This document shows positions 1,535 through 50,057 of a stretch of DNA of 64,000 nucleotides, piece after piece. The position numbers and the translations under genes were made by a program. The notes beneath the pieces were generated by a model, which was given only the letters and a program-made list of their open reading frames with translations, made no database searches and had not been told where the DNA came from. The DNA lies in contig JBQTJX010000004.1 of assembly GCA_052386675.1 (NCBI GenBank), forward strand, positions 71,330-135,329. Reading direction: 5' to 3'. The stretch is from Betaproteobacteria bacterium (GTDB taxonomy: Bacteria; Pseudomonadota; Gammaproteobacteria; Burkholderiales; SG8-39). Numbering within the stretch: position 1 is the stretch's first letter; every line of letters starts with the position of its first letter.

Positions 1535-1553
1535 TCCCGCGAGGAGAGAATCC

Positions 1554-1841
1554 ATGGCTGGCTATGTCATCGCCGAGGTCGAAGTGCGCGACCCGGTCCT
1601 GTACGAGGAGTACCGCAAGCTCGTTCCCGCAACGATCGCGCAGTACGGCGGCAAGTACCTGGCGCGCGGCGGCGCCATAGACGTGAAGGAAGGCGGCTGG
1701 CAACCGAAGCGAATGGTGGTGCTGGAGTTCGCCTCCGCAGACCAGGCGCGCAAGTGGTATCACTCGCCCGAATACACGGTCGCCGCGGCCATCCGCCACA
1801 AGGCCGCGACCTCGAACGTGGTGATCGTCGAGGGCGCCTGA
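1554..1841 (+). CDS. DUF1330 domain protein
   Basis: 95 aa, MAGYVIAEVEVRDPVLYEEYRKLVPATIAQYGGKYLARGG... matches the DUF1330 pattern as I recall it. SD-like GGAGAG lies upstream. Confidence 0.75.
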   Translation: MAGYVIAEVEVRDPVLYEEYRKLVPATIAQYGGKYLARGGAIDVKEGGWQPKRMVVLEFASADQARKWYHSPEYTVAAAIRHKAATSNVVIVEGA

Positions 1842-1842
1842 C

Positions 1843-2358
1843 CTAGCGCACCCGGCGGATCACCGCACAGGCGATCCGCGCGCCGCTGTTGCCGGTGGGC
1901 TGCGTGCGGTAGTCGTCCGGATCGGCGTGCACGATCAGGCCGCGGCCGACGATGCTGGCCGGCCCCGGCGCCACCGTCATCAGGTCCAGGTCCACCTGCA
2001 GGCCGCTGGCGCCGGTGGCGTCCCCCTTCAGCGCCGGCAGGTCGCCGGCGTGGCGTTCGGCCTCGCTGAAATGCCCGTGCGGCATCCGGCCCGGATTGAA
2101 ATGGCCCTTGGCGCTCATGCCATCGCCCGAACTGCAGTCGCCCGCTTCATGGACATGAAAGCCGTGTTCGCGGCCGGGAGCGAGGCCGCTCAGCCTCGCG
2201 ACTACGCGAACCTTGTCATCCATCTGGTAGAAATGCACCGTCCCGGCGGCCTTGTTGCCGCGGGTGGGCTGGAGTTCCGCCACGGCATGCGGCGCATCCG
2301 CCGGTATGGTCTGGCAGCCCGCGAGGACTGCCGCGGCGGCCAGGAAGATCCTGCTCAC
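1843..2358 (-). CDS. sodC: Cu/Zn superoxide dismutase, lipoprotein form
   Basis: GTG start. Lipobox LAGC. Motifs HGFHVHEAGDC, GHFNP, HAGDLP and GLIVHADPDDY...GNSGARIACAVI are diagnostic of SodC. Confidence 0.9.
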   Translation of the reverse strand: MSRIFLAAAAVLAGCQTIPADAPHAVAELQPTRGNKAAGTVHFYQMDDKVRVVARLSGLAPGREHGFHVHEAGDCSSGDGMSAKGHFNPGRMPHGHFSEAERHAGDLPALKGDATGASGLQVDLDLMTVAPGPASIVGRGLIVHADPDDYRTQPTGNSGARIACAVIRRVR

Positions 2359-2366
2359 TTAGCGAG

Positions 2367-2639
2367 CTACTTCTTGGCGCCTTTCGCCGGGGCAGCCGGC
2401 TTGGCATCCATGGCGATGCCCTTGTTCTTCTTGTAGTTCGCCACCGCCTTGTCCACGGCCTTGTTGTTCAATTCGCCTTCCTTCGCCTTGGCCGCGGCGG
2501 CCTTCTCGGCGTCGGAGGCCTTCTCCGCATCGGTCTTCGCGGGCGGCGGCGGCAGCTTGGCATGCACCGCGGTGTACGACCCGATCGCGAGCCCGCCCGC
2601 GATCGCCAGCACGTATCCAAGTTTCCCGAGTTTCTTCAC
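2367..2639 (-). CDS. Small membrane-anchored Lys/Ala-rich protein, unknown function
   Basis: 90 aa. GTG start with GGGAGAG SD, 17 nt after the fdh gamma stop. One N-terminal hydrophobic helix followed by a low-complexity KA-rich tail. Confidence 0.45.
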   Translation of the reverse strand: MKKLGKLGYVLAIAGGLAIGSYTAVHAKLPPPPAKTDAEKASDAEKAAAAKAKEGELNNKAVDKAVANYKKNKGIAMDAKPAAPAKGAKK

Positions 2640-2656
2640 GTGGCTCTCCCTGTTCC

Positions 2657-3724
2657 TCAGTGCGATGCCTGTGGCGCGGCGCCGGCCTTGGCGGCGGCCC
2701 CGGACGCGGACTTGCCCGATTTAACCTCGTCGTACCAGTACTGGTGGTGCTCCCTGGCCCAGATCTCGTCCACGAAACCGGTGCGCATGGACTGGTAGGC
2801 GCCCTCGACGCCGATGGTGCCCATGTAGATGTGGCCAAGGGACGCCGCGATCACCAGCAGCGCCGAGACGCCGTGGATGATGTTCATCTGCTGCATGGTG
2901 CTGCGCAGCTGCTCGAAGTTCGGGAACAGCATCACCAGGCCCGAGGCGCTGACGATCAGGCACAGCACCACCACGCCGCCCCAGAACCAGGCTTTCTCCC
3001 CGGCGTTGAAGCGCCCGGAGGCGATGTGCTCGCCGCGGAAGAAGAATCCCCAGACCTTGCCGAACCAGGCGAAGTCGTAGGCCCTGGGCAGGTTGTCCTT
3101 GATGTACATGACGATGAACACGAGCAGGCTCACCATGAACAGCGGCGCGACGAAATTGTGCAGGTTCTTGGCGAGCGCGGTGAGCCAGGCAAACAGCGTG
3201 TAGCCGATCACCGGCAGCAGCACGTACTTGCCGAACAGGATGATCAGTCCCGAGATGCCCAGCACCACGAACGAGATCCCCATGGTCCAGTGCGCCCAGC
3301 GCTCTGCACTGGAGAAACGCTCGATCAGGCGCCCGCTGGGCTTGTCGTGCAGCTTGATCGGGCCGCGCCCGAAATACAGCGCCGCGATGACCAGCGCCAC
3401 CAGCACCACAAGCCAGCCGCCGTAGAAAGTGACCGGGCCGTTTCGGTATTGCCGCCAGGCCTCGCCGGCGGTGGTGAACTTGTCCTGGCCGAGGAAGCGC
3501 GCCTGCCCCTGCACCAGCACGCCCATCTCGCGGCCGGGCAGGCTGGTGTAGTTCGGCTGTCCGGATTTCACCTCGGACCAGACTTCCTTGTTGTTGCCCG
3601 GCTGGTCGACCGTGCGCTTCTGCATGGCAGCGTCGGAAGAACCGGCAGGTACAGGGGCAGGCGCCTGCGCCATGGCGACGGACGCGATACAGAAAGCCGC
3701 GACAAATGCGGACGTCTTCAGCAT
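2657..3724 (-). CDS. Formate dehydrogenase gamma subunit (FdnI-like cytochrome b) with N-terminal periplasmic extension
   Basis: Start chosen at ATG 3724 (MLKTSAFVAAFCIASVAMAQA signal). Four TM helices with conserved His (ERWAHWT, NLHNFV, IIHGV, GHIYMG). Last structural gene after the alpha and beta subunits. Confidence 0.85.
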   Translation of the reverse strand: MLKTSAFVAAFCIASVAMAQAPAPVPAGSSDAAMQKRTVDQPGNNKEVWSEVKSGQPNYTSLPGREMGVLVQGQARFLGQDKFTTAGEAWRQYRNGPVTFYGGWLVVLVALVIAALYFGRGPIKLHDKPSGRLIERFSSAERWAHWTMGISFVVLGISGLIILFGKYVLLPVIGYTLFAWLTALAKNLHNFVAPLFMVSLLVFIVMYIKDNLPRAYDFAWFGKVWGFFFRGEHIASGRFNAGEKAWFWGGVVVLCLIVSASGLVMLFPNFEQLRSTMQQMNIIHGVSALLVIAASLGHIYMGTIGVEGAYQSMRTGFVDEIWAREHHQYWYDEVKSGKSASGAAAKAGAAPQASH

Positions 3725-3737
3725 TCTTGCCCCCGCT

Positions 3738-3986
3738 CTATTGGTAAATGCGCTTGTGCTCGTGCTGCGCCAGCTGGCGGTTCTTGATCTGCGTCTCCCA
3801 GCTCGTGCGGTCGCCCTTGGCCCATTTGGCGGATTCATGCTCGGTCGGCGCATTGGCCCAGGGCTGCGTGTCCGGCTTGCCCTGGTACTTGCCCGCCTTC
3901 GGGCCGGCGCCGGTCTGCTCGACTTCCATGCAGCCGGCCAGCGCAAGCGCCGCGCAGGCCGCTAGCGCAGTGAATCCGGCCCTCAC
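3738..3986 (-). CDS. Small lipoprotein encoded between fdh beta and gamma
   Basis: GTG 3986 overlaps the fdh beta TGA (GTGA). Lipobox ALALAGC. 82 aa. Function unknown. Confidence 0.45.
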   Translation of the reverse strand: MRAGFTALAACAALALAGCMEVEQTGAGPKAGKYQGKPDTQPWANAPTEHESAKWAKGDRTSWETQIKNRQLAQHEHKRIYQ

Positions 3987-4627
3987 GACTTGCCCGCCGG
4001 CGCGGGCGCCGCGGGAGCCGCAGCGGGCTTGCCGCCGGGCTGGCCGTAGGCTGTTCCCCAACCCCAGGCCTCGGCACCCTTGGTGCCGCGGCGCGCCACG
4101 CGCTCACGGTAGATATCGGCGACGACGTCGCCGTCACCACCCAGCAGCGCCTTGGTGGAGCACATTTCCGCGCAGGCTGGCAACTTGCCTTCGGCCAGCC
4201 GGTTGCGGCCGTACTTGCGGAACTCGCTGTCGGACCGGTCGGCCTCGGGGCCGCCGGCGCAGAACGTGCACTTGTCCATCTTGCCGCGCAGGCCGAAGGC
4301 GCCCGCCTGCGGGAACTGCGGCGCGCCGAAGGGGCAGGCGTAGAAACAGTAGCCGCAGCCGATGCACAGGTCCTTGTCGTGCAGCACCACCCCGTCATCC
4401 GTCCGGTAGAAGCAGTCCACCGGGCACACCGCCATGCAGGGCGCGTCCGAGCAGTGCATGCAGGCGACCGAGATGGATTTCTCGGCGCCGATGACGCCGT
4501 CGTTGATGGTGACTACGCGGCGCCGGTTGACGCCCCAGGGCACCTCGTTCTCGTTCTTGCAGGCCGTGACGCAACCGTTGCATTCGATGCAGCGTTCGGC
4601 GTCGCAGAGGAATTTCATTCTGGCCAT
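3983..4627 (-). CDS. Formate dehydrogenase iron-sulfur (beta) subunit, 4Fe-4S dicluster family
   Basis: CIECNGCVTAC, CMHCSDAPCMAVCP, CIGCGYCFYACP and CTFC...CAEMC cluster motifs. Immediately downstream of the alpha subunit. Confidence 0.9.
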   Translation of the reverse strand: MARMKFLCDAERCIECNGCVTACKNENEVPWGVNRRRVVTINDGVIGAEKSISVACMHCSDAPCMAVCPVDCFYRTDDGVVLHDKDLCIGCGYCFYACPFGAPQFPQAGAFGLRGKMDKCTFCAGGPEADRSDSEFRKYGRNRLAEGKLPACAEMCSTKALLGGDGDVVADIYRERVARRGTKGAEAWGWGTAYGQPGGKPAAAPAAPAPAGKS

Positions 4628-4654
4628 GGCTGTCTCCTTGTTCTCGTCGCCGGG

Positions 4655-7645
4655 TTAAGCCGTGAACTTCTCGACCTGGCAGAGCGTCGTCTTGGTTTCC
4701 TGCATCATCGTCACGCGGTCGTAGCCGTAGGTGGTGGCGGTGTTCACCGCCTCGCCGCGCACGATCGGCGCCGCGCCTTCCGGGTAGTAGGCCAGCATGT
4801 CCTGGCCCTGCCACCAACCCGAGAAGTGGAACGGGATGAAGCAGGTGTCCGCGCCCACGCGCTCGGTCACCAGAGCCTTGACCTTCAGGCGCACATGCTT
4901 GCCGTCGGCGTTGCGCCCCGGGGTGCTGACCCAGACGTATTCACCGTTGCGAATGCCGCGGTCGGCCGCGGTCTTCGGATTGACCTCGACGAAGTTGTCC
5001 TGCATCAGTTCGGCGAGCCACGGGTTGGAGCGCGTCTCCTCGCCGCCGCCCTCGTACTCCACCAGGCGGCCGCTGGTGAGCACCAGCGGGAACTTCTTGT
5101 GCATGTCCTCCTTGACGGCCTTCTGCTGCACGGTCTTGAAGAGGGTCGGCAGGCGCCACAGCGTCTTGACGTCGTCGTGGGTCGGGTACTTCTCGACCAT
5201 GTCCGGACGCGGGCTGAACAGCGGCTCGCGGTGCTGCGGGATGCCGTCCGGGAAGTTCCAGACGATGGCCCGCGCCTTGGCATTGCCGAACGGGTGGTTG
5301 CCGTGCTTCATCGCGACGCGCTGGATGCCGCCGGAGAGATCGTTGGCCCATGTCTTGCCCTCGGCCTCCTTTTTCTCCTCGTCCGTGAGTTCGTCCCACC
5401 AGCCCAGCTTCTTCAGCAGACCGTGGTCGAACTGCGGGTGGCCGGTGGTGATGTCGGCGCCCTTGGGGTGCACGCCGTCCTCGGCGAGCAGGTTGACGCC
5501 GTCGCGCTCCACCCCGAACAGGGCGCGGAAGTTGCCGCCGCCGTCCATCATGTGCTTGGAGGTGTCGTACAGGTTGGGCGAGCCCGGGTGCTTGATCGCA
5601 GCGGTGCCATAGCAGGGCCATGGCAGGCCATAGTAGTCGCCAGTCATGTCATAGCCGGTCTTGGCGTCCTTGCCGCCCTTGCACTTGAGCGTCTTGACAT
5701 CGAACAGGTGCATGTTGCGCATGTGGGCCTGGATGCGCTCCGGCGACTGGCCGGTATAGCCGATTGTCCAGGCGCCCCGGTTGACTTCGCGCAGCGTGTC
5801 TTCCATTGACGGCTCCTCGCCGCCCTTTCCCTTGACCAGCTTGATGTTCTGCTTGCCGTCCCTCTTGCCGACCAGCTGGTCGGCGAAGCCCAGCTTTGCG
5901 GCAAGCTGGTACATGATCATGTGGTCGGTGCGCGACTCGAACACCGGGTCGATCACCTTCTCGCGCCACTGGATGGAGCGGTTCGACGCCGTCGCCGAGC
6001 CCTCCGTCTCCAACTGCGTCGCAACCGGCAGCAGGTAGGCGCCGTCCTTCCTCACCATGGCGAACATCGCCGCCGAGGCGGAAGGGTACGGATCCAGCAC
6101 CACCATCAGGTCGAGCTTCTTCATCGCCTCGACCATCTCCGAGCCTCGGGATTGGCTGTTTGGCGCATGGCCCCAGAAGAAAATGGCGCGCAGGTTCGGA
6201 TCCTGGTCCACCGCGTCGTTCTTCTCGGTGACGCCGTCGATCCAGCGCGACACCGTCATGCCCGGCTTGGCCATCATGGCCGGCGAGGCGTATTGGCCCT
6301 GCAGCCACTTCAGGTCCACGTTCCACACCCGCGACCAGTGCGCCCAGGAACCAGGCACCGCGACCGGGTAATAGCCCGGCAGCGTGTCCGGGTTGGGACC
6401 GATGTCGGTCGCGCCCTGCACGTTGTCATGGCCGCGGTAGATGTTGCAGCCGCCGCCGGAGCGGCCGACGTTGCCCAGCGCGAGCATCAGGATATTGGAG
6501 GCTCGCACCACCGCGTTGGCGTTGGTGTGCTGCGTCTGGCCCATGGCCCAGATGATGAAGCCCGGGCGGTTCTCCGCCAGCGTCTTGGCGACCAGGTGGA
6601 TCTCGGCCTCGCTGCAGCCGGTGGCCTCGGTCACCTTGTCCGGGGTCCACTTCGCCAGCACTTCTTCCTTCACCTTGTCCATGCCGTAGACGCGGGTGCG
6701 GATGTACTCCTTGTCCTCCCAGCCGTTCTTGAAGACGTGGTGCAGGACGCCGAACAGGAACGGCACGTCCGTTCCCGAGCGGAAGCGCACGTACTGATCG
6801 GCCTTGGCGGCGGTGCGCGTGTAGCGCGGATCAGCGACGATTACCTTGCAGCCATTCTCCTTGGCGTGCAGCGTGTGCAGCATGGATACCGGATGCGCCT
6901 CTGCGGCGTTCGAGCCCAGGAACAGCAGGCTCTTGGAATTCTGCTCGTCGTTGTACGAATTGGTCATCGCGCCGTAGCCCCAGGTCTGGGCGACGCCGGC
7001 GACGGTGGTGGAGTGGCAGATGCGCGCCTGGTGGTCGGTGTTGTTGGTGCCCCAGAGCGACACCCACTTGCGCAGCAGGTATGCCTGCTCGTTGTTGTGC
7101 TTGGAGGAGCCGACCACGAACAGGGCGTCGGGCCCGGATTCCTTGCGTATCGCGAGCAGCTTCTTCGAGATCTCGTCGTAGGCGACGTCCCAGGAGATCT
7201 TCTTCCACTTGCCGCCTTCGAGCTTCATCGGGTGCTTCAGGCGGTGCGAATCGTGGGTGATGCCGTGCTCGCGGATCGAGGCGCCCTTGGCGCAGTGCGC
7301 GCCGAGATTGATGGGCGAGTCGAACACCGGCTCCTGGCGTATCCAGACGCCGTTCTGCACATGGGCGTCGATCGCGCAACCCACCGAACAGTGCGTGCAC
7401 ACGGTGCGCTTGACCTCGATCTTGCCGCCCTCGCCTTCCTTGGCGGCCTCGGCCTGGCCGATGACGCTGAAGGGCAGCTGCGAGGCGACGGCGCCGGCGC
7501 CGACGGTGAAGCCGGAGCGCTTGAGGAACGCGCGCCGGTCGAGCGTCTTGCCCATCACGGCGGACAGGCCGCGCGAGAGGCGATTCTGGACGGCACTCGT
7601 GCCGTGGGAAGCGGCGGGAGTGGACGACTTCTTCGTGAGCAGCAT
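4655..7645 (-). CDS. Periplasmic formate dehydrogenase alpha subunit (molybdopterin), Cys-type
   Basis: 996 aa. GAGGAGG SD 7 nt before ATG 7645. Twin-arginine signal DRRAFLKRSG. N-terminal CTHCSVGC Fe-S motif. HQARICHSTTV has Cys (TGC 7016-7018) where FdnG-type enzymes carry Sec. Confidence 0.95.
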   Translation of the reverse strand: MLLTKKSSTPAASHGTSAVQNRLSRGLSAVMGKTLDRRAFLKRSGFTVGAGAVASQLPFSVIGQAEAAKEGEGGKIEVKRTVCTHCSVGCAIDAHVQNGVWIRQEPVFDSPINLGAHCAKGASIREHGITHDSHRLKHPMKLEGGKWKKISWDVAYDEISKKLLAIRKESGPDALFVVGSSKHNNEQAYLLRKWVSLWGTNNTDHQARICHSTTVAGVAQTWGYGAMTNSYNDEQNSKSLLFLGSNAAEAHPVSMLHTLHAKENGCKVIVADPRYTRTAAKADQYVRFRSGTDVPFLFGVLHHVFKNGWEDKEYIRTRVYGMDKVKEEVLAKWTPDKVTEATGCSEAEIHLVAKTLAENRPGFIIWAMGQTQHTNANAVVRASNILMLALGNVGRSGGGCNIYRGHDNVQGATDIGPNPDTLPGYYPVAVPGSWAHWSRVWNVDLKWLQGQYASPAMMAKPGMTVSRWIDGVTEKNDAVDQDPNLRAIFFWGHAPNSQSRGSEMVEAMKKLDLMVVLDPYPSASAAMFAMVRKDGAYLLPVATQLETEGSATASNRSIQWREKVIDPVFESRTDHMIMYQLAAKLGFADQLVGKRDGKQNIKLVKGKGGEEPSMEDTLREVNRGAWTIGYTGQSPERIQAHMRNMHLFDVKTLKCKGGKDAKTGYDMTGDYYGLPWPCYGTAAIKHPGSPNLYDTSKHMMDGGGNFRALFGVERDGVNLLAEDGVHPKGADITTGHPQFDHGLLKKLGWWDELTDEEKKEAEGKTWANDLSGGIQRVAMKHGNHPFGNAKARAIVWNFPDGIPQHREPLFSPRPDMVEKYPTHDDVKTLWRLPTLFKTVQQKAVKEDMHKKFPLVLTSGRLVEYEGGGEETRSNPWLAELMQDNFVEVNPKTAADRGIRNGEYVWVSTPGRNADGKHVRLKVKALVTERVGADTCFIPFHFSGWWQGQDMLAYYPEGAAPIVRGEAVNTATTYGYDRVTMMQETKTTLCQVEKFTA

Positions 7646-7656
7646 GGCGCGCCTCC

Positions 7657-7854
7657 TCAGACTTTCGCCGAGCGGTAGTAGTTGTTGACGTGCTCCGTGA
7701 CGTGGTAGCCCTGCGTCGAGCGCTTGTCCCCGTCCTTTGCAACCGTTTCGGGCGCGGGCCTGGTCGCGACCGCGGCCGCAGCGGCAGCGGCGCCGCCTGC
7801 GCCGAGCGTCACGAGAAAAGTCCTGCGGGAAAGCCTGGTTTTTTTGTCGCTCAT
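7657..7854 (-). CDS. Formate-dehydrogenase-region Tat-target small protein
   Basis: 65 aa with SRRTFLVTLGAGGAAAA twin-arginine signal, directly upstream of the alpha subunit. AGGAGA SD. Family recalled from memory. Confidence 0.7.
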   Translation of the reverse strand: MSDKKTRLSRRTFLVTLGAGGAAAAAAAVATRPAPETVAKDGDKRSTQGYHVTEHVNNYYRSAKV

Positions 7855-7936
7855 CGGTCGTCTCCTCTTGTGCCGTCCACGTTCCTGCTCAGCCCTCGCA
7901 CCAATTCGGGGCCCGGCTTATGAAAACCTGTGCAAA

Positions 7937-7955
7937 ATTACCTGTCTATTACCTG
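7937..7955 (-). promoter_or_regulatory. Two direct ATTACCTG repeats spaced 11 bp apart (CAGGTAAT in gene sense) in the AT-rich fdh upstream region
   Basis: ATTACCTG at 7937-7944 and 7948-7955, plus a third ACCTG at 7926-7930. They lie 83-100 nt upstream of the first fdh-operon start codon. Confidence 0.3.
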
Positions 7956-7973
7956 AACCACAAGAGAAAGTTG

Positions 7974-8006
7974 GCGCGAAGTCGGGATGCGTTCTTGACT
8001 TCGCGC
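7974..8006 (-). terminator. Candidate terminator hairpin between the accessory operon and the fdh structural operon
   Basis: Perfect 10-bp stem GCGCGAAGTC/GACTTCGCGC with a 13-nt loop, 32 nt after the TorD-like stop. Followed in gene sense by CAACTTTCTCTT, a weak T tract. Confidence 0.35.
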
Positions 8007-8037
8007 TCGCAGTTGAGAGGCGTTCTCGACTGAGCGC

Positions 8038-8655
8038 TCAACCGATGTCGAATGCTTCGTTCTCAAGTTCGAAGAAGGCGCGCGCGAACCGGGCAGCAGA
8101 TCGGTAAAAACGCGCTTTCGGCGAAGCGCTTACCGCAGTGCAGAAGGCGGTTGCGCCGCGGTACACGAAGCGCTTGAAGAAAACCCTCTGTTCCTCAAGG
8201 CCTCTCTGCTGCACCGCAATAGCCATTCGCATCACTTCGCACATCGCCGCGATGTGGTCTTCCGGTTCATGCGCGGATTCGCGCCGCGCCAGTCCCCAGC
8301 GCTCGAGTTGCTGCTTCACGTCGACCAATGGCGTGTCGTTGGCGTGCGCCAGCACGTAATGCGAGAGGTACGGCGTGACCTCGGCCTTGCCGGTACCGAT
8401 GAACAGTTCGGTGTGCTCGTCCTCCAGCTGCACCGGGAATGCCTTGCGGCAGGCGTCCATCATCTCGCGCCAGGCGTCGGCGATCTCCGATGGCGAGGTG
8501 TCGAATGGCTCTGCATTGAGCAGCTCGCCCAGCAGCTGCGCATCCGGCGCCTGGTAGAACAGCCGCGCGATGAGGCCGTAGAAATTGGCGCGCGCCCGGT
8601 CCTCTTCGTCCAGGGACACCTGGCCTGCGGCAATAAGCGTCGAATCCTGGCTCAT
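8038..8655 (-). CDS. TorD/DmsD-family redox-enzyme maturation chaperone-like protein
   Basis: 205 aa. ATG 8655 overlaps the upstream stop (ATGA). Sequence ...ANFYGLIARLFYQAPDAQLL...EHTELFIGTG...PYLSHY... matches the TorD-like pattern. Confidence 0.7.
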   Translation of the reverse strand: MSQDSTLIAAGQVSLDEEDRARANFYGLIARLFYQAPDAQLLGELLNAEPFDTSPSEIADAWREMMDACRKAFPVQLEDEHTELFIGTGKAEVTPYLSHYVLAHANDTPLVDVKQQLERWGLARRESAHEPEDHIAAMCEVMRMAIAVQQRGLEEQRVFFKRFVYRGATAFCTAVSASPKARFYRSAARFARAFFELENEAFDIG

Positions 8656-10757
8656 GACCCCTTCGGATAATCCATGATCGAGGGCTCGTCCTTGGCGTTC
8701 ATCATGTCCACCACCCGGCAATCGGCACACATCTGCAGGCGCTTGAGCGCGCCGCCGCCCGCAAACATGGAATGCGCGCCCAGCTTGCCGGACATGTTTT
8801 CGATCATCCTGCGTGTGCCGAAGGGCGTGCCGCAGCGCACGCAGTTGAACGGCTCGGCCTCGTTCAGCGTCACCGCTTCCTTCGCCTGCGCGCCGAGCAG
8901 CAGTCGCGGCACCAGCCTGATGGCGTCCTCCGGGCAGGTTTCCGCGCACAGGCCGCACTGCACGCAGTTGCGCTCGATGAAGCGCAGCGCCGGTGCCTCC
9001 TGCGCGTCCAGCAGCGCGGATTCCGGGCAGGCGCCGATGCAGGCCTTGCACAGCGTGCAGCTGTCCTTGTTGATCGCCAGCGTGCCGTAGGGCGCCCCGG
9101 CGGGCAGCGGGATCTCGTCCTTCGGCGCGGGCGCGTGCTTCGCGAGATGCTCGAAGGCGAAATCCAGGGTGCCGCGCTTCTCGGCCGCGAGGTTGAAGGT
9201 CGCGGGGATCTTCACCGAGGGCGCTGGCGCGAGGCTCCACAGCGCCTGCTCCAGCGCCGCCGCATCTTCCGCCTCGATCACCGAAAACCGGCTGCCCGGG
9301 TAGCCCAGCGCCGACACGATGGCCTGCGCGAACTCCATCTGCTTTCGCATCGCGGCGACATAGGCCGTCTCGCCCAGCCGAGGGGCGACCACGCAGACCT
9401 GGCTGGCGCCGTAGGCGAGCGCGCCCAAAAGGAAGTCCATCCCCACCGAGGCGGCATGGAAGGCCTCGAACGGAATCGCCCTCGCCGGCAGCCCCCGACC
9501 TGCGCCTTTCCCGCCCTGACCGCGCGAGCCGTGGCCCGCGCGCCGGCCGACTTCATGCAGCAGCTTGCGGCCCGCCTGCAGGTCGTGGACGAGCACGCAT
9601 GCGTCGCGCCCGCCCGCCTGCGCGTAGGTCGAGAGCATGGTCTTCAGCCGCGCCCCGATCTGCGCCATGCCCGGCACGACATGGGTCAGCGCGCCGGAAG
9701 GACAGACTGTCGCGCAGCCGCCGCAGCCCGCGCACAAGTGGGGCTCGACGCGCACGTGATCGCCATCGGGGCGGATGGCCCCGGTGGAACAGACGTCGAG
9801 GCATTTCGTGCAGCCGGTCTTGCCCGAGCGGCCATGAGCACAGATGCGCTCTCGGTAGTGCGTGAAGCGCGGCTTGGAGAACTCGCCCACCAGCGCGGCG
9901 AGCTTCTGCGCCGCGAGCGCCTGCTCAAGCGGATCGGCGCCCGGCGCGGCATATCCCTGCGGCAGGTCCGGCATCCGCAGCAGCGGCACGCGCGACAGGT
10001 CAAGGACGAGATCGAAGGTTTCCCGGTGCCGGGCCTCGGGCCGCGAGAAGTCGATCGCGCCAACCGCCCCGCAGGCCTTGACGCAGGCGCGATGCGACCT
10101 GCAGCGAGACAGGTCCACCTGGTAGGTGAAATCGATCGCGCCCTCGGGACAGGCGTTTACGCAGGCATTGCACCGCGTGCACAGCTCGAGGTCGACGGGG
10201 TTCTCCTGGCGCCATTCGATGTCGAATGCGCCGAGCCAGCCCGACAGGGCCAGCGGCTTGCCCGACCAGACCGGGTAGCGGCGCTCAGCCGGAAGCTCTC
10301 CTGCGCCTGCTTCGGTCAGCAGCACGCTGACCTGCAGCGACTGGCACAGACGCTCGGCCCAGTCGAGCGCGGCGCCCGCGGGGCCGACGATCAGCATCTG
10401 GCCCGAGGACTGGTAGTCCACCTGCGCCACCGGCTCGGGCTCGGGCAGCGCGGCGGTGGCGATCAGCGCCGCGATCTTGGGCTGCGCCGAGCGTCCTTCG
10501 GCGGACCATCCGGCCAACTCGCGGATGTTGACGAAGGAAATGCGCGCCTGCGAGTTCGCGCCCTCCGCCAGTTCTGCGAACAGCGGCGCTTCCTGGGTGC
10601 AGGCGACGATCAGGTCGGAATCCGACAGCGCCGCCTGGAACGCGCCCGCCTCCTTGCGGCAGAGCTCGGTGTGCAGCGCCACGCCGAGCGCTTTCGCGTC
10701 CACCGGGATGGTGCCGTTGCAGGAGCAGAGCTTAAGCGTCTTGTTTTGCAGCGCCAT
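8652..10757 (-). CDS. Large multi-cluster 4Fe-4S ferredoxin-domain protein (fdh-associated)
   Basis: 701 aa. N-terminal LCSCNGT motif. At least six CxxCxxCxxxC(P)-type motifs (CTRCNACVNACP, CTKCLDVCS, CAGCGGCATVCP, CTLCKACIGACP, CVQCGLCAETCP, CVRCG...CADC). Confidence 0.8.
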   Translation of the reverse strand: MALQNKTLKLCSCNGTIPVDAKALGVALHTELCRKEAGAFQAALSDSDLIVACTQEAPLFAELAEGANSQARISFVNIRELAGWSAEGRSAQPKIAALIATAALPEPEPVAQVDYQSSGQMLIVGPAGAALDWAERLCQSLQVSVLLTEAGAGELPAERRYPVWSGKPLALSGWLGAFDIEWRQENPVDLELCTRCNACVNACPEGAIDFTYQVDLSRCRSHRACVKACGAVGAIDFSRPEARHRETFDLVLDLSRVPLLRMPDLPQGYAAPGADPLEQALAAQKLAALVGEFSKPRFTHYRERICAHGRSGKTGCTKCLDVCSTGAIRPDGDHVRVEPHLCAGCGGCATVCPSGALTHVVPGMAQIGARLKTMLSTYAQAGGRDACVLVHDLQAGRKLLHEVGRRAGHGSRGQGGKGAGRGLPARAIPFEAFHAASVGMDFLLGALAYGASQVCVVAPRLGETAYVAAMRKQMEFAQAIVSALGYPGSRFSVIEAEDAAALEQALWSLAPAPSVKIPATFNLAAEKRGTLDFAFEHLAKHAPAPKDEIPLPAGAPYGTLAINKDSCTLCKACIGACPESALLDAQEAPALRFIERNCVQCGLCAETCPEDAIRLVPRLLLGAQAKEAVTLNEAEPFNCVRCGTPFGTRRMIENMSGKLGAHSMFAGGGALKRLQMCADCRVVDMMNAKDEPSIMDYPKGS

Positions 10758-11211
10758 CCAGTGGATCCATTTTTGAGTCCAACTGCGGGTCGGAATGCGG
10801 GGCGGCGGCTTCAGCCTGTGCTTGCGTCGCCGCGGCCTGCGGCTTCGGCTCCTCGAACAGCACGCTGCGTGCGTGGTCGAGGCGCTTGAGCATTTCCAGC
10901 GGGATCGGATCCTCCTTCGTATAGTCCTCCATGTAGGCCTCGAACGGATCGTGCACGTTGTAGCGCGCGTCCGCGAACAGCTTCTTCAGCGCGGCCCGGC
11001 GCGTTTCCGGAGCAACCTCGGCGGCCATGAACGGCTTGAAATCAGACTCGGTCGTCAGGCTCTCGACCGGAGGCAGCGGCGCCGGCGGTTCCTGTGCAAC
11101 TGCAGGCACCGGCGCCGCTTCGGGCTCCCGCTGCGGTGGCGCAACTTCCTCGCGCGCCTCGACCTTGCGCCGCGACCAGCGCGACAGGAACGGCTCCCGA
11201 TCCTCGTTCAT
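10732..11211 (-). CDS. DUF3306 domain protein
   Basis: 159 aa, FLSRWSRRK... N-terminus, Pro/Glu-rich middle, conserved ...[23 protein letters not shown]... Assignment from memory. ATGA-coupled to the upstream gene. Confidence 0.65.
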
Positions 11212-11687
11212 CGCTGCGGGCGGTCCTTCGGGTGCAGGAAGGAGCGGGGCTTGATGCGCTTCTTCGGTTCCGGGCGGTAGTTGGCTTCGACGTATTCGCC
11301 CACCCAGGCGAACAATTCCGGAGACATGGACACGCTGTCCACCGAGTTGCCGCCGTCGAGCCAGCGCCCGCCTTCGTAATAGCTCGCCGTGACCTGCAGC
11401 GGCAGCGCGGTTCCGCTATCCTCGTCCATGCGCCAGAGCACGAAGATGCGCGGCGATCCGGAAGACACGTTCAGGTAATAGCCCTCGGCCTCGTCGCGAT
11501 GCAGCTCCAGCGGGAACCCCGGGTGCAGCCATTGCGCAAAGGCCGGCTCCTGCACGAGCAGGCGCGGCGCTCCCGCCGGTTCCTCCGATTCGATCACCGA
11601 CCAGGGTTCCCACTGCACGCTCTCCCACCGGTTGCTGGTGGTGCGGCGCTGCATGATTACTGCGAGCGTTCTCCTCGGTATTTCCAT
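11208..11687 (-). CDS. DUF3305 domain protein
   Basis: Start placed at ATG 11687 (MEIPRRT...); ATG 11762 is possible but would overlap the moaA start region. ...[12 protein letters not shown]...[11 protein letters not shown]... pattern recalled as DUF3305. Confidence 0.65.
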
Positions 11688-11733
11688 TCGCGCGACTATA
11701 CCCTCTGCTATGATTTTGCGGCGAAAAGCACCA

Positions 11734-12803
<1,070 letters not shown>

Positions 12804-12813
12804 GCGCAAGCTG

Positions 12814-13668
12814 GTGGCAGCGGCATCCCGTCCGGTCCTCACTGACGCCGCGCGCCCGGCCACCTTCGAGGTCGAGGCGATCAACGAGCGCGGCGAGTCG
12901 GTGCCGACCTCCATCGCGGGCGAACACCCGCTTACCCTGTACCTGGACAAGCGCGAGCTGGTGACGCTGATGACGCTGGGCCACGCGCCCGAGGCGCTGG
13001 TGATCGGCTACCTGCGCAATCAGCGCCTGGTCGATTCCATCGCCGACATCAAGGCGGTGCAGGTGGACTGGGAAACCGATTCGGCCGCGGTCACCACCTC
13101 CGGCAAGGTGAAGGACGTGCTGAAGAAGACCCGCAAGCGCACCGTCACCACCGGCTGCGGCCAGGGCACGGTGTTCGGCGACCTGATGGACGAGATCGAC
13201 AAGCTGAGCCTGCGCGACGACGTGCGCCTCGCCGACAGCCAGCTGTTCGACCTGGTGGAGAAAGTGCGCAAGTACGAAACCATCTACAAGCAGGCGGGCG
13301 CGGTGCACGGCTGCGCCCTCGCCGCGGTCGCGGGACCCGCATCGATCAAGATCCTGATGTTCGTCGAGGATGTCGGCCGCCACAACGCGGTGGATGCCAT
13401 CGCCGGCAGGATGTGGCTGGATGGCATCGATGGCTCGGACAAGATCTTCTACACCACCGGTCGGCTCACCTCGGAGATGGTGATCAAGTGCGCGCAGATG
13501 GGCATTCCGTTCCTGGTCTCGCGCTCGGGCCTGACCCAGATGGGCCACGACATCGCGCGCCGCGTCGGACTCACCATGCTCGGGCGCGCGAGCGGCCGGC
13601 ACTACCTCGCCTTCACCGGCCAGCACCGGCTGCTGCGCACTGCGCCGCAGGCCACCGCGCTGGCCTGA
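12814..13668 (+). CDS. fdhD: Formate dehydrogenase accessory sulfurtransferase FdhD
   Basis: TTGCGQGTVFG, GAVHGCALA, EDVGRHNAVDAI and SRSGLTQMG motifs. No ATG after the moaA stop, so GTG 12814 was chosen and the start is uncertain. Confidence 0.8.
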   Translation: MAAASRPVLTDAARPATFEVEAINERGESVPTSIAGEHPLTLYLDKRELVTLMTLGHAPEALVIGYLRNQRLVDSIADIKAVQVDWETDSAAVTTSGKVKDVLKKTRKRTVTTGCGQGTVFGDLMDEIDKLSLRDDVRLADSQLFDLVEKVRKYETIYKQAGAVHGCALAAVAGPASIKILMFVEDVGRHNAVDAIAGRMWLDGIDGSDKIFYTTGRLTSEMVIKCAQMGIPFLVSRSGLTQMGHDIARRVGLTMLGRASGRHYLAFTGQHRLLRTAPQATALA

Positions 13669-13678
13669 TTCCGCCTCC

Positions 13679-14620
13679 ATGCTGCCGCAGCTGCCAGCCG
13701 CCCAGGCCGCCGCCTTGGCCTGCGAAACAGTCGCCGACTGGTGGCCGCGCCACCGCGCCATTGCCGCGGAGCACCCGGACCCGATCCACCAGGCGATCGT
13801 CGGCGGTTTCGTCGCCGACCGCGTCGGCTGGGCATTCGCCTCCGGATACCAGGCCGCGCTGCGCGCGCTGGTGCCCGACCTGCCGGCGGACCGCATCTGC
13901 GCGCTGTGCGTCACCGAGGAGGATGGCAACTCGCCCAAGGCAATCAAGTCCACGCTCCGGCGCAACGGCTCGGGCCTGATCCTCGACGGCGCCAAGCGCT
14001 GGACCACGCTCGGGCCGGACGGAGGGCTGTTCCTTGTGGCGGCACGCGATGCCGATGCTCAGGGCGAGCGCCCGTCGCTGAAGGTTGCGCGAGTCGCGTC
14101 CGGAGCGGCAGGCGTCACTGTCGAGAAGATGCCCCCGACCCGCTTCGTGCCCGAGGTTCCGCATGCGCGCCTGAAGTTCGAAGGCGTGCGCGTGGAGGAA
14201 TCGGCGCTCCTGCCCGGGGACGGCTACGACCAGTATGTGAAGCGCTTCCGCACTGTGGAGGACATCCACGTCCAGGCCGCGGTGCTGTCCTACCTGATGC
14301 GCGAGGCGCAGCGGCTGTCCTGGCCGGAAGGCTGGATCGAGCGTCTGTCGGCGCTGCTGGCGGCGCTGGGCAAGATCGCGGACATGCCTGCGGAGAACGC
14401 CGAGACGCATATATCGCTCGCGGGCGCGCTCGCCATCGGCAGCGACCTGATCGGGGAAGCGGAGGCGTTCTGGATGAAGTCGGCCGCCGACCCGGCGGCG
14501 CTCAGGTGGGGGCGCGACCGGGAATTGCTCAAGGTCGCGAGCGGCGCGCGGGCGCAGCGCACCAGGCGCGCCTGGGAGCGCCTGCGCGGCTTACGTCGGG
14601 CAAATGTTACCGATCGGTAA
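13679..14620 (+). CDS. Acyl-CoA dehydrogenase-like family protein (short form)
   Basis: 313 aa. ...LILDGAKRWTTLGPDGGLFLVAAR... and ...LLPGDGY... resemble the ACAD middle and C-terminal domains. The final codons and TAA stop lie inside the 26-bp palindrome. Confidence 0.55.
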   Translation: MLPQLPAAQAAALACETVADWWPRHRAIAAEHPDPIHQAIVGGFVADRVGWAFASGYQAALRALVPDLPADRICALCVTEEDGNSPKAIKSTLRRNGSGLILDGAKRWTTLGPDGGLFLVAARDADAQGERPSLKVARVASGAAGVTVEKMPPTRFVPEVPHARLKFEGVRVEESALLPGDGYDQYVKRFRTVEDIHVQAAVLSYLMREAQRLSWPEGWIERLSALLAALGKIADMPAENAETHISLAGALAIGSDLIGEAEAFWMKSAADPAALRWGRDRELLKVASGARAQRTRRAWERLRGLRRANVTDR

Positions 14621-14725: not shown

Positions 14726-16156
14726 ATGGCCGCCGAATTCCTGGTCCTCGTCAAACGCGAATGCGAGACCTGCCAGATGGTCGGGCCGGTGCTCGCCGGC
14801 CTGAAAGCACGCGCCCCCCTCACGCTCTTCTCGCAGGACGACCCCGCGTTCCCCGAAGAAACCGGCGGCGCGCTGGACGACCGGTCCCTGGCGCAGTCGT
14901 GGAAGCACAAGGTGGAGATCGTCCCGACGCTCATCCGACTCGAGGGCGGCCGCGAGGTCGCCCGCACCGAGGGCTGGAACCGCGCCGATTGGGCAAGGCT
15001 CACCGGCATCGCCGACATCGGCAAGGCGTTGCCGCCTTCGCGCCCCGGTTGCGGCTCCCTCACCATGGACCCGGGCATGCCGGAGCGCCTCGCCCTGAAA
15101 TTCGGCGACCTCAAGCTCGCCTCGCGCCCGATCGAAGTGGCCGAGCTGGACGACCCGCACGAGGTCGCCTACGACCGCGGCTGGTCGGACGGCCTGCCCG
15201 TCATCCCGCCCACCGACCTGCGCATCGCGAGGATGCTGGCAGGCACCACGCGCAAGCCGGACGAGGTCATCGGCCTGATCCCGCCCAACCTGGTCGAGTG
15301 CACCATCGAGAAAGCAGCCATCAATGCGGTGATGGCCGGCTGCCGGCCGGAGTACTTCCCGGTGGTGCTGGCGGCAATCGAGGCCGCGCTCAAGCCGGAG
15401 TTCTCGATGCACGGCCTGCTGGCGACGCTGTGGTTCTCCGGCCCGGTGGTGATCGTCAACGGACCGGTGACGAAGCGCATCGGCATGAACTGGGCGGGCA
15501 ACGCGCTCGGCCAGGGCAACCGCGCCAATGCCACCATCGGCAGAGCGCTGCAACTCGTGATCCGCAACGTGGGCGGCGGCCGGCCGCAGGAAATTGATCG
15601 ATCCATACTGGGAAACCCGGGCAAGTACACCTTCTGCTTCGCCGAGGACGAGACCGATCCGGAGTGGATGCCGCTCAACGTCGCGCGCGGCCATCGGCGC
15701 GGTTCATCCACCGTGACGCTGTTCCACGGCGACGGCGTGCACGCGGTCTGCGACCAGCGCTCGCGCGACCCGGAAAGCCTGTCGGGCTCGCTGGCGCTGA
15801 CGCTGTGGTCGGTGTGCCACCCCAAGCTCGCGCAGTGGTCGCATGCGATCCTCGTGCTTTCGCCCGACCATTACGACATCTTCAAGCAGGCCGGCTGGGG
15901 CAGGAAGGAAATCGAGGCCGGGCTGTGGCAGGCGCTCAAGCGCCCGGCGAAGGACCTGGTGCAGGGCGCCGGCGGCGTCGCCGAGGGCCTCGATCCGTCG
16001 CGCGCGGACGAGATCGTGGACAAGTTCCATCCCGGCGGACTGCTTGTGGTGCGCGCCGGGGCGAGCGGCGGGCTCTTTTCCGCCGTCATCGGTGGCTGGT
16101 CCGCCCAGCGCCGCCATACCGAAGTTCAAGTCGTATCAAAGGAGATCGGGACATGA
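14726..16156 (+). CDS. Thioredoxin-like (CxxC) domain fused to a ~370-aa domain of unknown function
   Basis: MAAEFLVLVKRECETCQMVGPVL...VEIVPTLI is Trx-fold-like with a CETC motif. The remainder (…GWSDGLPVIPPT…AINAVMAGC…) I cannot assign. The stop overlaps the next ATG (ATGA). Confidence 0.65.
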   Translation: MAAEFLVLVKRECETCQMVGPVLAGLKARAPLTLFSQDDPAFPEETGGALDDRSLAQSWKHKVEIVPTLIRLEGGREVARTEGWNRADWARLTGIADIGKALPPSRPGCGSLTMDPGMPERLALKFGDLKLASRPIEVAELDDPHEVAYDRGWSDGLPVIPPTDLRIARMLAGTTRKPDEVIGLIPPNLVECTIEKAAINAVMAGCRPEYFPVVLAAIEAALKPEFSMHGLLATLWFSGPVVIVNGPVTKRIGMNWAGNALGQGNRANATIGRALQLVIRNVGGGRPQEIDRSILGNPGKYTFCFAEDETDPEWMPLNVARGHRRGSSTVTLFHGDGVHAVCDQRSRDPESLSGSLALTLWSVCHPKLAQWSHAILVLSPDHYDIFKQAGWGRKEIEAGLWQALKRPAKDLVQGAGGVAEGLDPSRADEIVDKFHPGGLLVVRAGASGGLFSAVIGGWSAQRRHTEVQVVSKEIGT

Positions 16157-16686
16157 CGCAGGACGGCTACGTAATGCGCGACCCGACCGCGGAAACCGCG
16201 GCGGCGCAGCGCGAAAGGCTGGCGCCACCGCCGGACCTCTCCAAGGCCGCCATCGGGCTGCTCTGCATCTCGAAGGAGCGCAGCGAGGAGTTCCTCGACA
16301 CGCTCGCCGAGCGGCTGGGCGCGCGCGGACTCGAGGTGCTGCGCTTCGCCAAGCCCACGCACACCAAGCCCGCGCCGGAAGCGGTGCTCGCGGACATCGT
16401 CGAGCGCTGTGACGTGGTGGTGGAAGGGCTCGCCGACTGAGGTTCCTGTACGTCGTGCAGTTTGCATGACCTGCAGAATCTCGACCGGCGCGGCATCCCG
16501 GGATGCGGCGTGGCCACCGAGGCCTTCCGCCAGGCGGCGGACGCGCAGATGAAGTCGCTCGGCTTCGCCGCCGGGCTGGTGTGGGTGCCGCATCCGGTGC
16601 AGAACCGGACGCGCGCCGAACTGGTGGCGCTGGCGGACGAAGCGCTGCCGAAAATCCTCGCCCTGATCGAGCGCAAGGCGGCCTGA
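16153..16686 (+). CDS. Candidate UGSC-family selenoprotein (177 aa, Sec at codon 96 encoded by TGA 16438-16440)
   Basis: AAGGAGA SD 8 nt before ATG 16153. ...VVVEGLAD-TGA-GSCTSCSLHDLQNL... continues in the same frame to TGA 16684-16686. The downstream half has no SD of its own. Confidence 0.65.
16438..16440 (+). other. In-frame UGA, proposed selenocysteine codon
   Basis: This single TGA separates two same-frame ORFs (15664..16440 and 16462..16686 in the ORF track). It is followed by GGT TCC TGT, giving U-G-S-C. Confidence 0.6.
16452..16485 (+). promoter_or_regulatory. Candidate bacterial SECIS hairpin
   Basis: GTCG-TGCAG-(TTTGCATGAC loop)-CTGCA-(GAATCT bulge)-CGAC, starting 12 nt after the UGA. 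Folded by eye only. Confidence 0.3.
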
Positions 16687-48977: not shown

Positions 48978-50057
48978 ATGAACCCGCGGGAAAAACCTTC
49001 GGTCGCGATCGGGCCAGCCGCGCTTGCCGGCTTCGACGCGATCATCGACACCCGCTCGCCCGCGGAGTACGCCGAAGACCATGTTCCCGGCGCGGTGAAC
49101 TACCCGGTGCTGGACAACGAGGAGCGCGCGCGCGTCGGAACCGACTACAAGCAGCGCTCTCCCTTCGAGGCGAAGAAGCTGGGCGCAGCGCTGGTGGCGC
49201 GCAACATCGCGCGCCATATCGAGCAGTCCCTCATGGACCAGCCGCGCGGCTGGCGCCCGCTGGTCTATTGCTGGCGCGGCGGCAAGCGCTCCGGGGCCAT
49301 GGCCCACATCCTGCGCGAGATCGGCTGGGAGGCGAAGACGCTGGAGGGCGGCTATCGCGCCTACCGGCGCTACGTGGTCGAGCGCCTCGCTACCCTGCCC
49401 GGTTCGTTCGACTTCCGCGTCGTGCATGGGGTGACGGGCAGCGGCAAGAGCCGGCTGCTGCAATCGCTGCGCGGCGCCGGGGCGCAGGTGCTGGACCTGG
49501 AGGACCTCGCGGCCCATCGCGGCTCGGTGCTGGGCAACCTGCCCGAGCGGCCGCAACCGTCGCAGAAGATGTTCGAGAGCCTGCTGCTCGCGGAACTGGA
49601 AAAGCTGGACGCCTCGAAGCCGGTCTACGTCGAAGGCGAGAGCCGCAAAATTGGCCAGGTGCAAGTGCCCGAGGCGCTCATCACCCGCATGCGCGCCAGC
49701 GAGTGCGTCCTGCTGGAAACCGCACGCGAGGCTCGCGTGGCCCTGCTGCTGGACGAATACCGCCATTTCTTTGCCGACCTGCCGGCGCTCAACCTGCAAC
49801 TGGATTGCTTGGTCACCCTGCACGGGCGCGAGCGCATCGGTGAATGGAAGGCGATGGCGGCGAACGGCGAGTGGCCTGCGCTGGTGGCGCGGCTGCTGGA
49901 GGAGCACTACGACCCGGCCTACAAGCGCTCGGCGCCGAACAATTTCCCCCGGCTCGCGCAGGCGCGGCGCGTCTCCGTCGCCTCGCCCGAGCCTTCGGCT
50001 TTCGATGCTGCGGCGCGCGCGGTTCTCGCCTCCGCCAACGAGGCGGTCGCCGCCTGA
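48978..50057 (+). CDS. mnmH: tRNA 2-selenouridine synthase (MnmH/SelU)
   Basis: Rhodanese domain with active-site CWRGGKRS, P-loop GVTGSGKS, 359 aa. Confidence 0.9.
   Translation: MNPREKPSVAIGPAALAGFDAIIDTRSPAEYAEDHVPGAVNYPVLDNEERARVGTDYKQRSPFEAKKLGAALVARNIARHIEQSLMDQPRGWRPLVYCWRGGKRSGAMAHILREIGWEAKTLEGGYRAYRRYVVERLATLPGSFDFRVVHGVTGSGKSRLLQSLRGAGAQVLDLEDLAAHRGSVLGNLPERPQPSQKMFESLLLAELEKLDASKPVYVEGESRKIGQVQVPEALITRMRASECVLLETAREARVALLLDEYRHFFADLPALNLQLDCLVTLHGRERIGEWKAMAANGEWPALVARLLEEHYDPAYKRSAPNNFPRLAQARRVSVASPEPSAFDAAARAVLASANEAVAA

Follow-up and report, generated by a model that had tools for sequence, protein, structure and literature searches.

Gene Organization at the UGSC Locus

A 64,000-nucleotide stretch of a betaproteobacterial genome assembly (contig JBQTJX010000004.1, positions 71,330 to 135,329; this whole stretch is hereafter called the window) contains two overlapping genes on the forward strand that are the subject of this work. 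The first one (14726..16156) encodes a 476-aa protein, here called the partner, whose start ATG was assigned by orthologue alignment and whose stop codon TGA (16154-16156) overlaps the start codon ATG (16153-16155) of the second gene in an ATGA arrangement. The second gene (16153..16686) is preceded by a Shine-Dalgarno sequence, AAGGAGA (16139..16145), located 7 nt 5' of the ATG, and its frame runs through ...ERCDVVVEGLAD into a TGA codon at 16438-16440, continues as GSCTSCSLHDLQNLDRRGIPGCG... for 81 further codons, and reaches its real stop, also TGA, at 16684-16686. The product read directly from the sequence is thus 95 + 1 + 81 = 177 residues long, and the internal UGA corresponds to residue 96, which aligns with an invariant Cys of homologous proteins and starts a U-G-S-C-T-S-C motif, U being selenocysteine (Sec). 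Taken together, the results presented below make it very likely that positions 16153-16686 constitute one gene, that its product is a 177-aa selenoprotein of the UGSC family in which UGA encodes Sec, and that this protein is paired with the partner in a proposed redox relay.

The start codon with its Shine-Dalgarno sequence, the ATGA coupling to the upstream gene, and the continuation of the frame for 81 codons beyond the TGA had all been described in an initial annotation of this DNA, and direct reading of the sequence verified them. The same annotation had placed an ATG at 16462; the codon at that position is TTG, a Leu codon located in the loop of the hairpin described below, and the first in-frame ATG 3' of the UGA is found at 16549. 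Its expectation that gene callers would fragment the gene was borne out by an identical public Logan contig, where the gene is called as two open reading frames (ORFs) of 95 aa and 74 aa. A general reassignment of UGA does not account for the open frame, because TGA truly ends the partner, UGSC, mnmH, and fdhD genes in the window.

The 177-Residue Product Is a Member of the UGSC Family

When Sec was written as Cys, the 177-aa product matched the NCBIfam model NF041046, "UGSC family (seleno)protein", with 127.9 bits (curated cutoff, 125; profile positions 3-146 of 147), and the Pfam model PF24696 with 129 bits (cutoff, 25), in agreement with the family identity that the initial annotation had proposed. 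The separate halves scored 40.9 and 65.9 bits with NF041046, both under the cutoff, and therefore the product is recognized as a family member solely when the frame is read across the TGA.

Homologues were searched for among 5.8 billion proteins. All the full-length homologues (165-195 aa, 43-57% identity) presented a Cys at the position of the TGA, within the sequence D-C-G-S-C-T-S-C, and the fragment homologues (97-130 aa, 62-79% identity) covered the N-terminal half only and all terminated in ...LAD; this is the truncation that gene callers produce in Sec forms. An alignment of 27 homologues, the check that the initial annotation had advised, placed D-[C/TGA]-G-S-C-T-S-C in register, with Cys or TGA at residue 96 and invariant columns on either side. 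At the nucleotide level, a one-genome-per-species collection was used, in which 359 genomes encode a UGSC relative. At the 80 closest loci of this set the codon was TGA in every case (80/80), and the frame continued with GSCxxC and another 78-88 codons. A further 80 loci came from a scan that started from Cys forms, and the non-redundant species-level set (n = 164) comprised 114 Sec (TGA) forms, which come from several phyla, and 50 Cys forms. The recurrence of the TGA, the motif, and the hairpin in 114 loci greatly exceeds what chance would produce. The codon differences 3' of the TGA between the window gene and its close relative at locus L006 were 12 synonymous and 0 non-synonymous, and those with respect to locus L007 were 17 synonymous and 4 non-synonymous. 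From the UGA to codon 104, the variation among 77 distinct Sec-form sequences was wholly synonymous, with a TCN/AGT serine switch in a paralogue. This substitution pattern indicates that the region downstream of the TGA is under purifying selection.

These data bear on two readings that dispense with Sec altogether. According to the first one, which is that of the automatic callers, translation really ends at the UGA and two separate proteins of 95 aa and 74 aa are made, the second of them starting at the in-frame TTG at 16462. Such a split appears extremely improbable because the codons that separate the UGA from the TTG (G-S-C-T-S-C-S) show protein-level conservation, with synonymous variation only, and within them the stretch G-S-C99-T-S-C102 (16441..16458) is invariant in the alignments. 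Moreover, codon 104 is CTG, a poor start, in 13 of the 102 Sec forms compared, no Shine-Dalgarno sequence precedes 16462, the Cys homologues are continuous, and neither half reaches the family cutoff. According to the second reading, a Cys codon was mutated or misread as TGA, which is one substitution away from TGC and TGT, and the window alone cannot decide on this point. Nevertheless, the same TGA occurs in the 114 species-level loci of several phyla and also in the independent, identical Logan contig, and both the purifying selection downstream and the TGA-specific hairpin described below are difficult to reconcile with a pseudogene or a sequencing error. The comparative data effectively refute this explanation, whose probability we regard as negligible.

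The gene is an ordinary member of a known family, and nothing sets it apart from that family. UGSC was noted from 2005-2008 as "UGSC-containing protein" by Zhang and Gladyshev (PMC1976440, PMC2398784), and the 2008 study counted it among the most abundant selenoprotein families of the Global Ocean Sampling data set, with 255 Sec and 21 Cys forms (PMC2398784). A survey published in 2016 listed 33 UGSC genes in 26 organisms (PMC5029168), and a review of May 2026 still places UGSC among the families of largely uncharacterized function (PMC13188914). The window gene resembles the family in passing both models, in the position of the U-G-S-C motif, in a length within the usual range of ~175-190 aa, and in the existence of both Sec and Cys forms; the Sec forms predominate in our locus set, as they do in the ocean metagenomes (255 Sec versus 21 Cys).

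The carriers of UGSC genes are nearly all uncultured metagenome-assembled genomes (MAGs) of Alpha-, Beta-, and Gammaproteobacteria, Acidobacteriota, Bacteroidota, Chloroflexi, and Nitriliruptoraceae. Isolates with a Cys form are Sphingosinicella xenopeptidilytica, Bradyrhizobium australafricanum, and Elioraea rosea, and an isolate with a Sec form is Noviherbaspirillum galbum 17J57-3; Hyphomonas neptunium is a cultured Sec-form strain according to the literature. Within-genome paralogy is common, since several MAGs contain two UGSC modules (a module being the partner gene together with the UGSC gene) on separate contigs (L028/L131, L035/L170, L037/L127, L038/L126, L039/L135, and L050/L112), and the second copies were Sec forms wherever checked.

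A Hairpin Conserved in the UGA Forms

The initial annotation had pointed to a hairpin after the UGA, at a distance typical of a bacterial selenocysteine insertion sequence (SECIS), and such a structure was indeed found. The RNA from the UGA onwards folds as a 46-nt hairpin (16438..16483, forward strand) of -25.6 kcal/mol (z = -2.83; none of 200 shuffled sequences reached this stability), which consists of an 8-bp upper stem (16452-16459/16463-16470), a G-U-U loop (16460-16462), and a lower stem that is variable and contains the UGA. The upper stem (16452-16470) begins 11 nt 3' of the UGA. Across the 77 distinct Sec-form sequences, the pairing of this stem was kept in 616 of 616 cells (8 bp x 77 sequences). 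With positions numbered from the U of UGA, pair 18-30 was G·U in 63 sequences, G-C in 10, and A-U in 4, and pair 15-33 was G-C in 73, A-U in 3, and G·U in 1, neither of them ever being broken; the G at position 23 and the U at position 24 of the loop were invariant, and the lower stem, in the register seen in the window, was just partly preserved.

The same 48 nt were compared in 102 distinct Sec and 48 Cys sequences, whose GC contents are 0.55 and 0.58, respectively. The mean minimum free energy was -20.4 ± 3.3 kcal/mol in the Sec forms versus -11.0 ± 3.7 kcal/mol in the Cys forms (Mann-Whitney p = 9e-21), and the full 8-bp stem was present in 97 of the 102 Sec sequences versus none of the 48 Cys sequences. 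In agreement with this, Ser103 was encoded by AGT in all 102 Sec forms but in only 1 of the 48 Cys forms, Cys102 by TGC in 102/102 and 38/48, respectively, and residue 104 was Leu or Val (UUG, CUG, or GUG) in the Sec forms and Thr in 46 of the 48 Cys forms. Because the stem and its stability accompany the Sec forms and not the Cys forms, the comparison indicates that the hairpin is an RNA element under selection solely where the codon is UGA.

The SECIS of E. coli fdhF forms a stem-loop that begins 11 nt past the UGA and carries a G and a U in its apical loop. The window hairpin resembles it in the distance of 11 nt from the UGA to the stem-loop, in the apical G and U at positions 23-24, and in the location of the UGA inside the lower helix; it differs from it in sequence, in having no obvious bulged U, and in a loop of 3 nt.

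Linkage of the Module to Selenocysteine Genes

In a Burkholderiales MAG (L013/L171) whose partner is 79% identical to that of the window, selB (TIGR00475, 404 bits), a tRNA-SeC gene, the partner gene, and UGSC follow one another in this order. A Magnetovibrio MAG (L020) carries tRNA-SeC and selA (TIGR00474, 551 bits), divergently oriented and ~1.4 kb from the module, and just past selA there is a SelB-type GTPase motif (ATAGHVDHGKTSL), which is a motif match only. In the cultured N. galbum 17J57-3 (L174) the gene order is partner, Sec-form UGSC, selB, and tRNA-SeC. The sel genes therefore stand beside the module in three lineages, two of them Burkholderiales (L013, 116-6531; L020, <929-5900; L174, 664-6020), and this linkage suggests that the Sec system of these bacteria has in UGSC one of its principal clients. 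The N. galbum locus was revealed by a single-sequence selB pattern search that returned 14 loci, none of them from the closest MAGs of the window organism, about which this search is uninformative.

The mnmH gene (48978..50057, forward strand), encoding tRNA 2-selenouridine synthase, had been cited in the initial annotation as a sign of selenium use; its identity was confirmed by NF008752 (507.7 bits; cutoff, 266), and, although it is only context for the UGSC gene, its presence implies a supply of selenophosphate. By itself, however, mnmH indicates the selenouridine trait only, and since no Sec machinery lies in the window, it could be argued that the organism has mnmH and selD alone and that the UGA is read through without Sec, for instance by near-cognate insertion of Cys or Trp. 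We judge this very improbable in view of the SelB-type hairpin, which is maintained at synonymous sites in the TGA forms only, and of the linkage of selA and/or selB plus tRNA-Sec to the module in the three lineages mentioned above.

Two further features of the L013 contig are worth recording. One stop-free frame of 1,164 codons (292-3786) contains selB in its last ~640 residues; its first ~527 codons gave no selA match, and a possible location of selA is the overlapping ORF 116-1876. In addition, a tmRNA gene (9064-9434; tag ANDERFALAA) is located ~2.5 kb downstream of the UGSC module.

The Partner Is an Obligate Neighbor with a Thioredoxin Domain

The partner protein of the window is 63-79% identical to the products of genes located 5' of UGSC on unrelated contigs. 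Adjacency of the two genes was observed at 84 of 85 assessable sites in a first batch of loci and, in a second batch, at 49/49 Cys loci and 30/31 Sec loci, the 3' end of the partner gene usually lying at the UGSC start or a few bases off. There is no conserved third gene, the best neighbor family being present in 15 of 164 loci.

The partner consists of an N-terminal thioredoxin-fold domain (C13-E-T-C16), a linker with the sequence P-G-C109-G-S, and a domain of ~350 aa. It gave no Pfam match even at E <= 10 and no NCBIfam match, and its homology search listed at least 8,000 candidates among the matches, named at source "thioredoxin family protein" or "hypothetical protein". A model of the partner obtained with AlphaFold2 (AF2; mean predicted local distance difference test score (pLDDT) of 82.3) shows a thioredoxin domain, which spans residues 1-~100, followed by a large alpha/beta domain. 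Foldseek aligned the N-terminal domain with many thioredoxins over ~100 residues (template modeling (TM) score on the target ~0.6; probability 1.0), and a profile search of Protein Data Bank (PDB) sequences returned marginal matches, all of them to thioredoxins (E 0.14). The N-terminal domain of the partner thus combines the fold and the CxxC motif of the thioredoxin family.

Cys13, Cys16, Cys109, Cys206, and Cys304 of the partner were kept in at least 96 of 98 Sec modules and in all 48 Cys modules. Across the wider family of the large domain, as sampled by 121 diverse members, only C206 and C304 of these residues are universal, along with many invariant polar residues. An exhaustive profile search with the large domain recovered 6,568 representative clusters (50% identity, E <= 0.001), 1,700 of them at E <= 1e-30, and many members are stand-alone proteins of ~350 aa. 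Stand-alone genes for the large domain followed by Sec-form UGSC genes occur in other phyla, including Chloroflexi, and twice in tandem at locus L187. Furthermore, P0267, P0302, and P0320 are single polypeptides in which the large domain follows a UGSC domain, and in P0190 an AhpC/TSA redoxin takes the place of the thioredoxin domain. The 2008 study also reported UGSC fused to a domain named "Unknown_1" (PMC2398784), which is probably the large domain of the partner. In some fused relatives the UGSC cysteines are partly or wholly lost (DCGSCTSW, HCGASSSW, and WSGVYTIW, the last one in P0302), and therefore the UGSC selenol or thiol is not indispensable across the superfamily.

Some other arrangements were noticed along the way. 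The forms of the large domain collected as sequences P0181-P0449 are stand-alone, thioredoxin-fused, AhpC/TSA-fused, UGSC-fused, and ~710-aa proteins. Tandem modules are found in L071 (2832-6531), L076 (~2167-6531), and L187 (3149-6628). Directly 5' of the canonical pair, L071 and L076 carry a partner-like ORF that has diverged (36-37% identity; 346 aa in L071) and lacks the thioredoxin domain, followed by a second Sec-form UGSC gene with the motif GSCSSC, and in L187 two stand-alone modules follow each other. At the Cys-form locus L087, ARAGORN called a 98-nt "tRNA-Gly" (3980-4077) within the partner coding sequence, which is probably a false positive.

A Flavodoxin-like Fold Is Predicted for UGSC

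The structure of UGSC was modeled on the closest Cys homologue (P0001, 57% identical) as a proxy for the window protein. The AF2 model of P0001 (pLDDT 90.7; predicted TM score 0.84) consists of five beta-alpha units. Cys96 lies where strand 3 passes into helix 3, and C99 and C102 of the G-S-C99-T-S-C102 stretch are located one turn apart on the helix that begins at residue 96. In Foldseek searches against the PDB, the model gave generic matches to flavodoxin-like, TIR, and lumazine synthase structures (TM 0.4-0.5), with no thioredoxin in the top 50, and a profile search of PDB sequences with UGSC gave no match. Hence, the fold of UGSC is predicted to be flavodoxin-like and not thioredoxin-like. 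A thioredoxin-like fold had been suggested for the family in 2008 (PMC2398784); this suggestion found no support here, because the P0001 proxy model is flavodoxin-like and has no thioredoxin among its top 50 matches.

A Proposed Selenol/Thiol Relay Formed by UGSC and the Partner

The strict gene pairing, the natural fusions, and the eight redox-capable residues conserved across the two proteins support the idea that UGSC and the partner, whose genes are translationally coupled through the ATGA overlap, form one enzyme. The following sequence of events can be proposed. SelB and tRNA-Sec would decode the UGA at 16438-16440, recruited by the stem-loop located 11 nt downstream (upper stem 16452-16470). 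The resulting protein would be a small flavodoxin-like alpha/beta domain with Sec96 placed where strand 3 ends and the helix begins, and with Cys99 and Cys102 on the next two helical turns (U-x-x-C-x-x-C). The large domain of the partner, with its two invariant Cys, would bind the substrate, and the UGSC selenolate, placed at the N terminus of the helix, would act as the attacking or redox-active nucleophile. Cys99, the likely resolving residue, would then convert Sec96 into a selenenylsulfide, which might be re-reduced by the CxxC domain of the partner (the redoxin in P0190), fed in turn by the cellular thioredoxin system.

The substrate could be, as a weaker inference, an organic acid or an acyl-CoA intermediate, as judged from recurrent but variable neighbors. 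These include genes for acyl-CoA synthetase, CoA-transferase III, enoyl-CoA hydratase, acyl-CoA dehydrogenase (ACAD), short-chain dehydrogenase/reductase, TctC and TRAP transporters, and GntR/FCD regulators, and in the window an ACAD-like gene is located upstream of the module and a convergent CoA-transferase III gene downstream of it. The pair is most likely an oxidoreductase that works as a selenol/thiol relay and has a link to organic-acid or acyl-CoA metabolism.

The spacing of the UGSC motif, together with the large domain of the partner, also admits a different chemistry. CxxCxxC spacing is typical of Fe-S ligation, and the U/C-x-x-C-x-x-C triad could be a set of metal or Fe-S ligands, the partner then being a hydro-lyase of the Fe-S type, comparable to class I fumarase. 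Among solved structures, Foldseek matched the large domain only to fumarate hydratases of class I (E 1e-4; probability ~0.9), and a carboxylate enzyme would suit the carboxylate and acyl-CoA gene context. However, these alignments have a TM score of just ~0.22 and an rmsd of 15-17 Å and are accompanied by no sequence similarity, the large-domain family conserves two Cys whereas class I fumarase needs three ligands, in fused relatives no more than the first Cys or the first two Cys of the triad remain (DCGSCTSW and HCGASSSW), and the thioredoxin or AhpC/TSA redoxin fused to the partner points to dithiol exchange. An Fe-S function of the triad is thus unlikely. The assignment of the large domain as a class I fumarase was rejected because only C206 and C304 are conserved; as stated above, the domain has no Pfam match.

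A relationship to the Sec subunits of the glycine and proline reductases, GrdB and PrdB (PF07355, TIGR01917), was also considered. The Grd and Prd enzymes depend on thioredoxin or a dithiol, and a similar dependence on a thiol reductant can be inferred for UGSC from the fused thioredoxin domain. UGSC might accordingly be a miniature homologue of the GrdB/PrdB Sec domain, and the module a Grd/Prd-like enzyme that cleaves C-X bonds reductively. UGSC shares with GrdB/PrdB a Sec in a U-x-x-C motif that follows a hydrophobic strand at the start of a helix and is followed by a "GIP(T)V" strand, and TIGR01917 gave a weak match centered on the Sec (residues 86-122 versus model positions 337-372; E 0.23). 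Marine PrdB-like selenoproteins display the same order of beta-strand, U-x-x-C, helix, and "GIxTV" strand (PMC2398784 supplement), and hhalign aligned them Sec-on-Sec over ~60 columns with E 0.009, or P 0.0035 with deeper profiles, versus P 0.25 and 0.71 for reversed controls. On the other hand, an unrelated control profile did nearly as well (score 24.9, P 0.012), and for this reason the homology is treated as unproven. The hhalign probability was below 10%, the TIGR01917 score was 10.3 bits versus a cutoff of 602, and UGSC is a protein of 177 aa versus ~240-430 aa. The large domain of the partner is unrelated, showing no similarity to PrdB-like proteins, nor to UGSC itself, and no gene for a pyruvoyl-type subunit (PrdA or GrdE) was found among the neighbors. 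Considering both sets of observations, the reading of the module as Grd/Prd-like seems unlikely, and the suggestive register of the alignment serves as a lead only.

In glycine reductase, the small selenoprotein GrdA works together with a larger protein that handles the substrate, and a dithiol of the thioredoxin type recycles GrdA. The combination of small selenoprotein, larger partner, and dithiol recycling recalls the UGSC module, but by analogy only, since the UGSC motif is UxxC versus CxxU in GrdA and no sequence relationship was detected; a carrier role for UGSC would be purely hypothetical. As a broader proposal, it is conceivable, albeit doubtful on balance, that in aerobic aquatic and soil bacteria UGSC and its partner represent an unrecognized, widespread class of two-component selenol/thiol-dependent reductases whose substrate is an organic acid or an acyl-CoA, the class perhaps sharing its Sec domain with GrdB/PrdB.

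Several observations count against the selenoprotein relay proposed here and have to be set beside the evidence in its favor. The selA, selB, selC, and selD genes were not found in the 64-kb window, where there are no tRNA genes and motif scans for SelA, SelB, and SelD came back empty, and for this reason Sec decoding in this organism rests on the relatives and on the conserved RNA element. As for that element, the formal covariation is weak, with double changes in 2 pairs and a marginal shuffle control, because most stem positions are invariant, and Rfam returned no SECIS or other family, either for the whole window at the gathering threshold or for 16380-16560 at a permissive E-value. The UGSC structure was modeled on the proxy P0001, and P0302 has lost the UGSC cysteines (WSGVYTIW) while retaining those of the large domain. 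Finally, the neighbor genes are highly variable among loci, which makes the metabolic assignment soft.

For annotation, these results mean that the gene should be given as one 177-aa selenoprotein, in place of the two fragments of the public calls. In metagenomes from oceans and fresh waters, UGSC ranks with the most abundant selenoprotein families, and it has been without a known function since it was first noted in 2005-2008. The obligate partner with its fused thioredoxin domain, the UGSC-partner fusions, the linkage to sel genes, the prediction of a non-thioredoxin fold, and the cultured strains provide handles that make the function of UGSC experimentally approachable.

Other Genes in the Neighborhood of the Module

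Just 5' of the partner gene, positions 13679-14620 encode a 313-aa ACAD-like protein of which only the middle domain was detected. Its best NCBIfam likeness, a very weak one, is to 3-sulfinopropanoyl-CoA desulfinase (35.9 bits; cutoff, 600). L185/L186 and 9 further loci likewise have ACAD genes 5' of the module.

A formate dehydrogenase cluster occupies positions 2657-13668 of the window. The alpha-like molybdopterin subunit (4655-7645, reverse strand; 996 aa) has no in-frame stop across the FdnG-type Sec region and is apparently not a selenoprotein. The cluster further includes the gamma subunit (2657-3946, reverse strand), a TorD-like chaperone (8038-9240, reverse strand), moaA within 11094-12803 (forward strand), and fdhD within 12703-13668 (forward strand).

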